From positions 1,728,001 through 1,792,000 of the forward strand of contig OZ247587.1 of NCBI GenBank assembly GCA_965233865.1: a stretch of DNA of 64,000 bases. Direction: 5' to 3'. The translations under genes were made by a program, and so were the position numbers. The notes beneath the pieces are model-generated. The model searched no databases, had not been told where the DNA came from, and worked only from the letters and a program-made list of their open reading frames with translations. The stretch's first letter is position 1. Each line of letters starts with the position of its first letter. Origin of the DNA: Candidatus Neptunichlamydia sp. Its GTDB lineage: Bacteria; Chlamydiota; Chlamydiia; Chlamydiales; Simkaniaceae. This document shows, in pieces, positions 60,360 to 62,000 of this stretch.

Positions 60360-62000
60360 TTGCCTACAAACCAAAAAACCGTTGGGAAAAAGAACACCCA
60401 ATTAGAGACAGGGATCCAGATCCTTCTTGACGGAAATCATCTTACTACATCAGAGGTCTTCAAGGCAGCTTTTGATTTTGATATAGAAATTGCAATTAAT
60501 CAGGAAACTGCCAAGCGCATAGACACCTCTCGTCAAACTCTGAACCAATTGGTGAAGGAGGGTCGCATTATTTATGGTGTGAATACGGGCGTTGGAGGCT
60601 TTGTTGACTGGCTCATCCCAGAAAACGATGCTGAAAAACTCCAAGAAAATCTGATTTCTGCTGTTGCAACCAATGTGGGCGCATACCTCGATGATTCGAT
60701 CTCGCGAGCTGCAATGCTTGTACGCTTGAACTCACTGGCCCGCGGTGCTTCTGCAATTTCCTTAGAAAACTTCAATAAATTATTAAAGATCTATAACGCT
60801 GGCATTGTTCCCTGCATACCATCTAAGGGATCATTAGGTGCCAGTGGAGATTTAGGCCCTTTAGCATGTATTACTCTCGTTGCCACAGGGAAATGGAAGG
60901 CAAAATACAAGGGAAGAATTCTCTCTGGTAAAAAAGCTTTGGAACAAGCCAGCATCGAACCTATGAAATTGGGCTTCAAAGAGGGGCTTAGCTTGGTAAA
61001 TGGAACATCTGTAATGACAGGTTTGGCAGCAATCTTAGTTGAACAAGCCATTTCTCTAATCAAAACTTATGACATTATCTCATGCCTAACCTTCGAAAGT
61101 CTGAAAGTCAAAAAACAACCCTTTAATCCAGTAGTTCATCGCGAAAAACCCCATCTAGGACAACTTCAAACAGCAAAAAACATTTGGGCCATTCTTGAAG
61201 ATAGCCAAATGACCGTTAATGAAGAAACTGTTGAGGAGCATTTGCAATCCTATTCGACTGCCGAGCCAATCCCCACAGATTCTCCTATAGAAGATGCATA
61301 TTCCATTAGATGCACCCCCCAAATCATGGGCCCTATTCGAGATACTATCAGGTGGGTTCAGTCCATTATCACAAATGAAATTAACTCAACCAACGACAAT
61401 CCTATAGTTCTTTCTAAGGAGAAGGAAGTTTTTCATAACGGACATTTCCATGGGCAATATATTTCTATGGCAATGGATTATCTTGGAATTTGTTTTACAA
61501 CTCTGTCAAATCTTTCTGATAGAAGAGTAGACCGTTTTATGGATGCTTCCAATAGTAATGGTCTTCCAGGCTTTTTATGTGCTGAAAATCCAGGTTTGAG
61601 GCTTGGACTTATGGGAGGTCAGTTCATGTCAGCGTCGGTGACCTCTGAGAATAGATCGTTATGCACACCAGTTTCAATTCAAACTTTGACTTCTACGGGG
61701 GATTTTCAAGACATTGTTTCGATGGGGTTAGTTGCCGCAAGGAGGGCTAAAGAAATATTAACCAACACCTATTACGTAGTTTCGTTTGAGCTACTTTGTG
61801 CTGCTCAAGCTGCTGAGATAAGAGGAAAACACCTCCTTTCGGAAGGATCGGTATGTGCGTTGAAGTTTGTAAGAGAGGTTGTTCCTTACCTATCCAATGA
61901 TCAAATCTTAACCGATTACCTTGAAAATTTATCTGGAGCCATTAGATCTGGAAACTTGCTTAAGAAAATAGAGAGCAAAATTGGGAAAATTCCCTTGTAG
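60360..62000 (+). CDS. MIO-dependent phenylalanine aminomutase/ammonia-lyase (AdmH/EncP-like)
   Basis: IYGVNTG, LQENLISAVATNVG, GSLGASGDL (MIO), EDAYSIRC, NDNP, HNGHFHGQY, DFQDIVS. Confidence 0.88.
   Translation: MPTNQKTVGKKNTQLETGIQILLDGNHLTTSEVFKAAFDFDIEIAINQETAKRIDTSRQTLNQLVKEGRIIYGVNTGVGGFVDWLIPENDAEKLQENLISAVATNVGAYLDDSISRAAMLVRLNSLARGASAISLENFNKLLKIYNAGIVPCIPSKGSLGASGDLGPLACITLVATGKWKAKYKGRILSGKKALEQASIEPMKLGFKEGLSLVNGTSVMTGLAAILVEQAISLIKTYDIISCLTFESLKVKKQPFNPVVHREKPHLGQLQTAKNIWAILEDSQMTVNEETVEEHLQSYSTAEPIPTDSPIEDAYSIRCTPQIMGPIRDTIRWVQSIITNEINSTNDNPIVLSKEKEVFHNGHFHGQYISMAMDYLGICFTTLSNLSDRRVDRFMDASNSNGLPGFLCAENPGLRLGLMGGQFMSASVTSENRSLCTPVSIQTLTSTGDFQDIVSMGLVAARRAKEILTNTYYVVSFELLCAAQAAEIRGKHLLSEGSVCALKFVREVVPYLSNDQILTDYLENLSGAIRSGNLLKKIESKIGKIPL

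Follow-up and report, generated by a model that had tools for sequence, protein, structure and literature searches.

MIO-dependent enzymes carry an (A/T)-S-G tripeptide that cyclises to form the MIO electrophile, together with a catalytic loop tyrosine and an arginine that binds the carboxylate. The described enzymes nearest in kind to the one reported here are AdmH of Pantoea agglomerans (PDB 3UNV) and EncP, the phenylalanine ammonia-lyase (PAL) of enterocin biosynthesis in Streptomyces maritimus. Stand-alone adenylation enzymes such as ORF19 of the streptothricin pathway form amide bonds with beta-amino acids and use no carrier; to our knowledge, an adenylation (A) domain that acts on a beta-amino acid without a PCP or a condensation domain has few precedents. 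In an andrimid-type cluster of Vibrio coralliilyticus, the phenylalanine aminomutase (PAM) gene is followed by a small open reading frame (ORF) and then by an AMP-binding protein, a precedent for a PAM that feeds an A domain; on a Streptomyces plasmid an AMP-binding protein adjoins the PAM, and in Mycetohabitans an NRPS does. According to the available portion of one study, EncP is a close AdmH relative whose lyase and mutase activities depend on temperature: it is a lyase at 30 °C. AdmH, for its part, turns into a lyase at high temperature (PMC3903478). The accessible part of another states that active-site residues do not tell MIO lyases from mutases (PMC5651878).

Chlamydiae are usually viewed as metabolic scavengers. 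Secondary metabolism among them was first noted only in 2022, when Dharamshi et al., in the sections of the paper available to us, described antiSMASH biosynthetic gene clusters (BGCs), NRPS-like ones included, as widespread in Chlamydiae and named the MAG S4.2_7 (locus L018 below) as having NRPS genes (PMC9666466). The main text of that paper contains none of the terms aminomutase, phenylalanine, adenylation or methyltransferase. Its supplements, of which the long files are possibly incomplete as available, hold no match to 'phenylalanine aminomutase', 'histidine ammonia', hutH or K01745; 'aminomutase' occurs in them 49 times, and both passages looked at concern hemL. Among the matches listed in our literature searches, no report linked beta-phenylalanine, an aminomutase or a BGC-type ammonia-lyase to chlamydiae; the AetD nitrile synthase surfaced instead.

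Here we describe an AdmH-type MIO enzyme encoded by Candidatus Neptunichlamydia sp. (contig OZ247587.1), near the end of the 64,000-nucleotide stretch of DNA that was analysed (the window). The 1.83-Mb genome carries four full-length ATP/ADP-translocase genes, which bears out the chlamydial source named in a preliminary description of this DNA. The ORF starts at a TTG codon with a purine-rich AAAGGGG 7 nt upstream and translates with zero internal stops. Its product matches PF00221 over the full length and far beyond chance (525.3 bits, E = 1.6e-157; residues 28–499 against positions 1–459 of the 466-position profile). By its sequence it clearly belongs to a family of enzymes that has been studied in depth, which makes its activity directly testable. 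The segments picked out in the preliminary description are all present in the intact translation: LISAVATNVG (residues 98–107), GIVPCIP (148–154), HNGHFHGQY (359–367) and DFQDIVS (448–454). The ASG triad (161–163) lies in GSLGASGDLGP (157–167), a string common to 150 of 157 aligned relatives, and Tyr72 and Arg317, within YGVNTG and YSIRCTPQ respectively, are matched by identical residues in 12 of 12 references.

The substrate selector is Ala101-Val102, a hydrophobic pair that all PAM-clade references share and that points to Phe, not Tyr or His, as the probable substrate; HutH, the TAM of Streptomyces globisporus (SgTAM, C-1027) and three chlamydial HutH-like proteins (L003, L004 and L006) instead have Ser-His, and the alignment thereby upholds the earlier remark that histidine is missing from the specificity position. 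With the Vibrio orthologue the enzyme has in common the tyrosine loop, the arginine, the Ala-Val selector, HNGHFHGQY, GGQFM and DFQDIVS; the loop tyrosine, Arg317, HNGHFHGQY and GGQFM are common to the PAM references. The triad sets it apart, as had been suggested by comparison with secondary-metabolism enzymes: the Vibrio coralliilyticus andrimid-cluster orthologue and the Mycetohabitans and Streptomyces proteins have TSG (in the PDB chain of Pantoea AdmH the MIO stands as X). ASG recurs in the chlamydial rows L012, L016 and L018 and in Roseibium, and is also the triad of SgTAM and HutH, fellow members of the PF00221 superfamily. TSG is a trait of the AdmH-type references and is not known as a requirement for an AdmH-type phenylalanine 2,3-aminomutase. 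With ASG in an active site that is AdmH-like in other respects, the enzyme is a natural variant for studying MIO formation and mutase/lyase selectivity.

Among the curated models, the aminomutase equivalog TIGR04475 (AdmH-type phenylalanine 2,3-aminomutase, forming D-beta-Phe) scores highest and is passed at 811.2 bits against a cut-off of 800, a narrow margin of 11 bits, with many chlamydial relatives just under the cut-off; scores for the PAL and Taxus PAM models fall below theirs. AdmH, of the same curated family, is the best solved relative (E = 1.9e-182; next structures about 1e-95), with residues 14–530 aligning to 21–534 of its chain. Identity reaches 55% (281/511) with the PAM of the Vibrio coralliilyticus andrimid-type cluster, compared with 34% for SgTAM and 39% for HutH. 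In a 'quick' IQ-TREE phylogeny with SH-aLRT support only and long outgroup branches, the enzyme falls with the andrimid-cluster AdmH orthologue in a 37-row PAM clade (SH-aLRT 100) and, within it, in a separate, mostly chlamydial subclade of 28 rows (support 99); FastTree on 65 rows gives the same placement. HutH and TAM lie outside the clade, so the preliminary assignment to the AdmH type, rather than to HutH, finds support in profile, best PDB match and tree alike. As the gene is nested among mostly chlamydial sequences, it was probably donated by another chlamydia and not by Pantoea or Streptomyces.

IS6 copies form the left end of the 12.9-kb island that carries the gene (Table 1), and the nearer one stops 157 bp upstream of the gene. 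The island is missing at this locus in three same-genus genomes and the gene occurs in 0 of 16, in keeping with the proposal that it was horizontally acquired. IS6 accounts for 22 matches in the genome, three of them full copies and the rest fragments, and remnants of the IS5 family follow the A-domain gene. The two ORFs between the IS6 copies have no homologue in 34 related loci, and neither they nor a 294-aa family near four related cassettes showed a counterpart that would tie them to the cassette. Base composition was also considered as a mark of foreign origin and rejected, since the GC fraction of positions 60001–62000 (0.404) is inside the range of the window (0.345–0.448). A search for promoters and terminators across the cassette was uninformative, with 11 promoter-like sites where 16.6 were expected and 4 terminator-like sites where 4.8 were.

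Table 1 Features of the island's left end and cassette, in window coordinates
Feature	Position	Strand	Remarks
Second IS6 copy	56151..57007	+	Inverted copy of the first (99% identity); left boundary of the island
Two ORFs (158 aa, 477 aa)	57095..59014	-	No known family; between the two IS6 copies
IS6-family element	59347..60203	-	857 bp, 16-bp terminal inverted repeats; NF033587, 264.6 bits
Transposase of the IS6-family element	59408-60151	-	Within 59347..60203
MIO-dependent enzyme, AdmH-type phenylalanine 2,3-aminomutase/lyase (predicted)	60360..62000	+	546 aa
Class I SAM-dependent methyltransferase MT-B	62074..62955	+	293 aa; weak Pfam Methyltransf_25/11
MFS transporter gene	63098..64000, on to window-equivalent 64372 past the window end	+	Split by in-frame TAG; Pfam MFS_1 on second part
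In-frame TAG in MFS gene	63377..63379	+	Gives 93-aa and 330-aa frames; non-conserved loop position

Besides the MIO gene, the island encodes a SAM methyltransferase, an MFS transporter, a stand-alone NRPS-type A domain and an aromatic amino-acid permease of the Trp/Tyr family. For the methyltransferase, MT-B, a PDB search gives 3ocj, whose function is unknown (E = 4.4e-28); with the predicted structure of MT-B (pLDDT 89), Foldseek returns 3ocj alone at TM 0.89, the other hits, at TM of about 0.5, being small-molecule methyltransferases of various kinds (O-, N- and C-), and the ESM Atlas gives generic class I methyltransferase clusters only. Apart from MT-B itself, a word-index search retrieved only 4 relatives, and its homologues adjoin the MIO gene in 7 of the 34 related loci. 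The two parts of the MFS gene both align to single ORFs of 396–438 aa in 9 related loci and keep their conserved motifs. The TAG that separates them recurs identically in the contigs that three runs of a single study yielded; these may be the source data of the assembly and hence are not independent.

In A domains the aspartate of FDxS binds the amine. The 553-aa protein encoded further downstream, at window-equivalent 64305-65966, scores 321.6 bits with the amino-acid adenylation model TIGR01733, above its cut-off of 317.4, and retains both this aspartate (FDAS) and the C-terminal lysine of PNGK; an amine-binding A domain fits beta-Phe better than cinnamate as the prospective substrate. Its identity to the A domains beside the Vibrio and Streptomyces PAM genes is only 21–23% (23% for the Vibrio protein in the AdmJ position), which lends no support to a shared substrate specificity. 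No condensation domain was found in the genome, and no carrier protein among the small ORFs of the island or in the genome other than the FAS ACP; a second weak PP-binding match was discarded as a carrier, as it sits in an Aas-like acyltransferase/AMP-binding protein. Like the Vibrio cluster, the chlamydial cassette has a downstream adenylating enzyme and also an MFS transporter; unlike the andrimid cluster, it lacks a PCP between its MIO and A genes as well as NRPS/PKS, transglutaminase-like and other andrimid genes. The locus also differs from the enterocin pathway, to whose EncP we compare the enzyme by description only, as neither a type II PKS nor a cinnamate-CoA ligase accompanies the enzyme here. 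Going by the general description of streptothricin ORF19, the resemblance is to an NRPS-type A domain without a carrier or condensation partner, here placed beside a putative beta-amino-acid-forming enzyme.

The MIO enzyme is not a lone oddity, and the gene set recurs in other environmental chlamydiae. Among the 34 related loci, an A domain accompanies the MIO gene in 17, an MFS transporter in 17 and a methyltransferase in 18, with all three beside it in 13. Locus L018, also chlamydial, combines MIO, methyltransferase and MFS genes with A-PCP and KS-ACP-TE proteins, and in L042 the MIO enzyme carries the methyltransferase as a C-terminal fusion; the methyltransferase type that relatives have in such fusions is 260 aa long. 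Loci L012, L015 and L036 have naturally intact cassettes in the order MIO, MFS, A domain, methyltransferase. The partners are not obligatory: four Rhabdochlamydia loci have the MIO gene with none of them, and at least two full-length loci with full flanks (L021 and L028) have MIO, methyltransferase and MFS genes and no A domain. Across the phylum, 30 of 401 sampled genomes carry a close homologue. This distribution, together with the name that NCBI has already given to the enzyme in relatives, makes its description as 'unexpected' in a reduced genome an overstatement.

From the family, clade and active-site residues of the enzyme, the order of the genes, the structure of the island and the recurrence of the gene set, we infer a substrate, a mutase rather than a lyase reaction, an order of steps and a product. 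On balance we favour a phenylalanine-specific enzyme of the AdmH/EncP clade that acts mainly as a 2,3-aminomutase with cinnamate as a side product and heads a cassette leading from host phenylalanine to an exported compound; most likely, it supplies beta-Phe for a methylated metabolite. Phenylalanine would be imported from the host, a step proposed because the genome's own prephenate dehydratase gene (pheA) is split by an IS; this and the island's permease speak for the host source envisaged in the preliminary description. The MIO enzyme, first in a cassette that continues with the methyltransferase, the MFS exporter, the A domain and then the permease, would isomerise L-Phe to beta-Phe. Given the lyase/mutase behaviour of EncP and AdmH, in the part of PMC3903478 available, it may release cinnamate too. 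The methyltransferase and the A domain would modify and activate beta-Phe without a carrier protein or condensation domain, and the MFS protein would export the product, although the in-frame stop in its gene means that export may be impaired in this genome.

If this is right, the recurring gene set suggests that some intracellular chlamydiae use a host amino acid to make a small molecule, which they export and which could target the host or rival microbes, and the island structure shows a route by which such a trait moves within the phylum. We are more tentative about a wider generalisation, which we think possible and on the unlikely side: that environmental chlamydiae share a mobile, carrier-free pathway of MIO enzyme, methyltransferase, A domain and MFS transporter that converts host phenylalanine into a secreted methylated beta-Phe derivative. 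Such a pathway, if real, would provide an obligate intracellular lineage with a dedicated small-molecule effector or defence compound. Under this generalisation, the SAM methyltransferase of each cassette would be of either of two unrelated types and in some cases fused to the mutase.

The aminomutase reading has to be weighed against a rival chemistry, in which the enzyme is mainly a PAL, like EncP, and its cinnamate is exported after ligation or methylation (a methyl ester being one example). EncP, itself of this clade, works as a PAL at 30 °C, PAL activity also emerges in AdmH when the temperature is raised (the portion of PMC3903478 available), and sequence cannot tell the two reactions apart (PMC5651878, likewise in part). 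In some relatives the MIO enzyme carries a fused methyltransferase, which could be of the carboxyl type, and at least two fully flanked loci with MIO, methyltransferase and MFS genes lack an A domain. The neighbouring ligase points the other way, passing an amino-acid adenylation model and keeping the amine-binding aspartate, as do the NRPS or A-PCP genes that adjoin relatives of the MIO gene and the rank of the aminomutase equivalog as the top-scoring curated model. We consider a cinnamate-based pathway conceivable but unlikely.

It is also doubtful, in our estimation, that IS activity carries the cassette along as a decaying passenger that no longer yields a product in this genome, its MIO ORF being intact only through recent arrival. 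Because of the in-frame TAG, persisting in the contigs of all three runs, the cassette may indeed be decaying here; the IS5-family remnants, the number of IS6 matches and the disrupted pheA agree with such a history, and in the related locus L041 the MIO gene is broken into four pieces. Against this, the MIO, methyltransferase and A-domain frames are full length with intact catalytic motifs, the TAG falls in a non-conserved loop and spares the conserved motifs of both MFS halves, and another transporter could substitute for the exporter.

That the enzyme is instead a histidine or tyrosine ammonia-lyase or aminomutase mislabelled by profile searches is highly improbable: several close homologues are called 'histidine ammonia-lyase' in JGI sources and the partial HutH scores are sizeable, but the latter stay under the cut-offs (TIGR01225, 460.2 against 539.15 bits; NF006871, 476.6 against 524), as does that of the TAM model TIGR03832 (426.1 against 501), the selector is Ala-Val instead of Ser-His, no hut genes occur among the neighbours examined, and the tree separates the enzyme from HutH and TAM with a support of 100.

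The MIO gene of the window, described preliminarily as intact, indeed encodes a complete 546-aa enzyme that carries every segment quoted for it: LISAVATNVG (residues 98–107), GIVPCIP (148–154), HNGHFHGQY (359–367), DFQDIVS (448–454) and GASGD, with ASG at residues 161–163. A purine-rich AAAGGGG lies 7 nt 5′ of the TTG codon; because the first in-frame Met is residue 119 and homologue alignments begin at about residue 16–21, this TTG or a nearby codon is the start. The single Pfam match is full-length (PF00221 Lyase_aromatic, 525 bits, E 1.6e-157), and the sole NCBIfam model passed is TIGR04475, phenylalanine aminomutase (D-beta-phenylalanine forming), at 811.2 against a cut-off of 800. 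The best solved structure is AdmH (3unv, residues 14–530, 610.7 bits, E 1.9e-182), followed by SgTAM and HAL-type chains at about 1e-95. The protein missed the NCBIfam cut-offs for HutH (460.2 vs 539.15; NF006871, 476.6 vs 524), tyrosine 2,3-aminomutase (426.1 vs 501), PAL (290.4 vs 519) and Taxus phenylalanine aminomutase (PAM; 199.9 vs 1250).

The reported lack of His at the specificity position also holds: the substrate selector is Ala-Val in all aligned PAM-clade sequences, the window protein included, whereas Ser-His occupies it in HutH, TAM and three HutH-like chlamydial proteins of the same alignment. The contrast of its ASG triad with TSG is right for three non-chlamydial PAM references (Vibrio, Mycetohabitans and Streptomyces), but ASG is a trait of the entire chlamydial subclade, is shared with Roseibium and is not peculiar to this gene; GSLGASGDLGP occurs in 150 of 157 aligned proteins and the TSG form in two. 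Annotated relatives were taken from a tblastn search of a plasmid collection. Among them, a Vibrio coralliilyticus plasmid cluster encodes a carrier protein, KS genes, PAM, a small ORF, an AMP-binding protein, NRPS, PKS, MFS and PPTase, the make-up of the andrimid cluster; we take it to be that cluster because this species is an andrimid maker. Its PAM is 55% identical to the window protein (281/511). In the joint alignment, identity is 56% for the Mycetohabitans PAM, 53% for the Streptomyces PAM, 39% for a HutH and 34% for the S. globisporus TAM.

In a quick IQ-TREE phylogeny (43 rows, LG+C20+F+G4, SH-aLRT support only, less reliable where rows are long), the window protein falls within a 37-row clade (support 100) that includes the Vibrio, Streptomyces, Mycetohabitans, Roseibium, Mycoavidus and Fluviispira proteins, with HutH, TAM and four chlamydial HAL-like proteins outside on long branches. 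FastTree agrees (65 rows; 54-row clade, support 98), likewise separating the protein from HutH and TAM. Within this clade, a 28-row subclade (support 99) holds the window protein and sequences from metagenome-assembled genomes (MAGs) labelled Chlamydiota, the few exceptions being labelled Verrucomicrobia, Halobacteriovoraceae or 'uncultured bacterium'. Such labels deserve little trust: L021, from a MAG that NCBI calls 'Candidatus Aerophobetes', has an MIO protein identical in sequence to the one in G023 (L002), a genome assigned to the same chlamydial family as the window. Among the close matches, several of the 'Verrucomicrobia' and 'Halobacteriovoraceae' labels may be wrong in a similar way. 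Profile, structure-database match, tree and selector residues together identify the window protein as a member of the AdmH-type family, the clade first proposed for it.

The enzyme's activity had been thought unexpected in a reduced genome. The description of the organism as an intracellular chlamydia is supported: its genome, a single contig of 1,830,388 bp, carries four TLC nucleotide-transporter genes, all full-length and of a family without a match in 14 control genomes, and the window holds the ordinary chlamydial genes BamA-OmpH-LpxD, FabH-FabD-FabG, RecR and a GroEL paralogue. The PAM gene, however, has many counterparts among environmental chlamydiae. Of 8,000 candidates scored in a word-index search, 7,733 proteins reached E <=0.001; identity is 64–100% for the best 120, and several homologues from Rhabdochlamydia and other chlamydial MAGs already bear the automatic NCBI name 'phenylalanine aminomutase (D-beta-phenylalanine forming)'. 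Across an evenly drawn phylum sample that includes the window's genome, a match at E <=1e-150 occurs in 30 of 401 genomes and 19 of 212 genera, with scores above the cut-off in 15 of the 401. One family accounts for 18 of the 30 (18/90 genomes there), and the window's family for 2/34. The gene thus recurs in a patchy pattern, and it is absent from all 16 other genomes of the window's genus. Some chlamydiae carry a second, distant MIO paralogue (27% identity, Ser-His selector), as at L042 (4801–6456) and at L006, where it is HAL-like, is the only copy in G015, of the same genus, and has an 18-residue insert ahead of the SGGNFHG motif; a family search of the window's genome found no MIO-family gene besides the PAM gene.

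The MIO gene belongs to a recurring cassette with a SAM methyltransferase, an MFS transporter and a stand-alone NRPS-type adenylation (A) domain. We surveyed 34 related loci with up to 8 kb per side, counting genes at E <=1e-10 and at least half query coverage and leaving out broken genes and partial genes at contig ends (L019, L030, L035, L041). The A domain is present in 17/34 loci (in three, all non-chlamydial, within multi-domain NRPS genes), MFS in 17 and a methyltransferase in 18, either of a ~260-aa type (MT-A, Methyltransf_31/25/11; 13 loci) or of the window's 3ocj-like type (MT-B; 7 loci); all three partners occur jointly in 13. Looser clustering gives 21 loci for MFS and 18 for the A domain. 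Gene order is MIO–MFS–A–MT-B at L012, L015, L017 and L036 and MIO–A–MT-A–MFS at L013, L029 and L033. At L042 (7929–10343), an MT-A domain is fused C-terminally to the MIO enzyme (805 aa), and two further fusions occur among database matches (P0098, P0121), which suggests that the methyltransferase would act directly on the MIO product. MIO open frames of 813 and 811 aa in G237 and G167 are also listed with class I SAM methyltransferase fusions. L021 and L028, both with full flanks, combine MIO, MT-A and MFS but lack the A domain. All the partners are missing at four Rhabdochlamydia loci, and in each a homologous ~314-aa ORF, an EamA-type transporter in the one scanned (L023), follows the MIO gene. 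At L018 the A domain gains a PCP and a KS-ACP-TE protein is added; in this stretch (11730–16266, sponge-associated MAG S4.2_7) the aminomutase is thus followed by a minimal hybrid NRPS-PKS.

Features of the MIO-gene region and of the prephenate dehydratase locus (window numbering, continued beyond 64000 where necessary, unless a contig is named)
Feature	Position	Strand	Details
IS6-family element, left copy	56151-57007		857 bp, 16-bp terminal inverted repeats; its end is the island's left edge
IS6-family element, second copy	59347-60203		inverted, 99% identical; ends 157 bp ahead of MIO gene
MIO enzyme ORF	60360-62000	+	546 codons, TTG start, no internal stops
Methyltransferase	62074-62955		293 aa, 3′ of MIO gene
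MFS transporter	63098-64372		after methyltransferase
AMP-binding protein	64305-65966		553 aa
IS4/5 transposase remnants			between AMP-binding protein and permease
Trp/Tyr-family permease	67834-69027		on island
Split prephenate dehydratase locus (L054)	G000:C1:531000-534500		ORFs 999-1472, 1496-2337, 2381-2698

In the window's genome, the AMP-binding protein scores 321.6 on TIGR01733, the model for amino-acid adenylation (cut-off 317.4), has NRPS A domains as its best solved relatives (for example LgrA, E 1.9e-112) and retains TSGTTGxPKG, FDAS, NEYGPSE, YRTGD and PNGKIDR. The stretch after YRTGD, core motif A8, is divergent here and in the most similar orthologues. The protein has no carrier domain, the genome has no condensation domain, and PP-binding matches in it are confined to the FAS ACP, which lies in the window, and a weak match within an Aas-like acyltransferase/AMP-binding protein. 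The sole solved match of the methyltransferase is a protein of unknown function (PDB 3ocj, E 4.4e-28), to which its AlphaFold model (pLDDT 89.2) aligns at TM 0.89, against ~0.5 for other small-molecule methyltransferases. The MFS gene is split by an in-frame TAG (63377–63379) at a non-conserved loop position, and its halves align with single 396–438-aa ORFs in nine related loci. Contigs of three runs from one study, possibly the source data, cover the site without any difference; as read from the gene, the cassette's exporter appears broken.

The cassette lies on an insertion. The flanking proteins lgt and pepA are 70–95% identical in five same-genus genomes, where they are 3.2–5.1 kb apart, compared with 15.3 kb here. 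DNA homology with three of these five genomes ends at 56145–56151 and restarts at 69098–69111, leaving a 12.9-kb island of unremarkable GC content. In its place, two of the three have 0.8–1.3 kb and the other has ~2.7 kb of unrelated ORFs. The island supports the lateral gain proposed at the outset. Since the MIO gene nests among chlamydial sequences, two of them from the same family, it most likely came from another chlamydia, and any transfer probably took place inside the phylum. Many losses from an ancestral copy may instead account for the distribution. The IS6 element has three full copies in the genome and, with many fragments, 22 matches in total. The inverted pair (56151–60203) resembles a compound transposon, its cargo, possibly an effector, comprising minus-strand ORFs of 158 and 477 aa that match no Pfam or NCBIfam family. 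Contig depth over one copy (59300–60240) is ~4–9x that of the unique cassette in the three runs, and one contig per run joins 59455 to 60054, omitting 598 bp, which indicates a shortened IS6 variant somewhere in the sample.

We propose that the MIO enzyme would take Phe as substrate and form beta-Phe via an MIO adduct and a cinnamate intermediate, part of which might be released; the adjoining A domain would activate the amino acid, the methyltransferase would modify it, and the MFS protein would export the product. In our model, the A domain would form an amide without a carrier. Streptothricin ORF19 is such a carrier-free, amide-forming A domain. As for supply, the genome encodes DAHP synthase–chorismate mutase, prephenate dehydratase and DHQ synthase, in that order, in a shikimate/Phe operon, but an IS4/5-type transposase interrupts the dehydratase after position 146 of the 181-position profile, with the rest ~0.9 kb downstream, so de novo Phe synthesis has probably been lost. 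The split dehydratase and the island permease fit the use of imported Phe. The enzyme is probably mainly a mutase; a mainly lyase activity seems rather unlikely. According to PMC3903478, AdmH makes (S)-beta-Phe for andrimid but shows lyase behaviour when the temperature is high, and EncP is a PAL at 30 °C; active-site residues do not tell lyases from mutases, according to PMC5651878.

The enzyme family is already known; the cassette around the MIO gene is what has not yet been described. An antiSMASH survey reports widespread biosynthetic clusters in Chlamydiae, including 'NRPS-like' ones, and mentions NRPS genes in S4.2_7 (Dharamshi et al. 2022, PMC9666466). Its main text does not mention aminomutase, phenylalanine, adenylation or methyltransferase, and the supplements available lack 'phenylalanine aminomutase', 'histidine ammonia', hutH and K01745; 'aminomutase' appears in them 49 times, two of these being hemL. 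A 2026 paper on a Hydra symbiont includes an NRPS-like cluster in a list but does not describe it further (PMC13229535), and our literature searches found no link between chlamydiae and phenylalanine aminomutase.

Elsewhere in the window, a 160-aa ORF (31973–32455, +) matches the eukaryote-type RING families zf-RING_2, zf-rbx1 and zf-C3HC4_2 (E ~1e-7 to 1e-6) and may encode a host-directed, E3-ligase-like effector. The adjoining 4.5 kb (27500–31970) has a sole pair of ORFs of at least 120 aa, at 28851–29354 on both strands, and the GC minimum of the central window (0.367) lies at 30001–32000.
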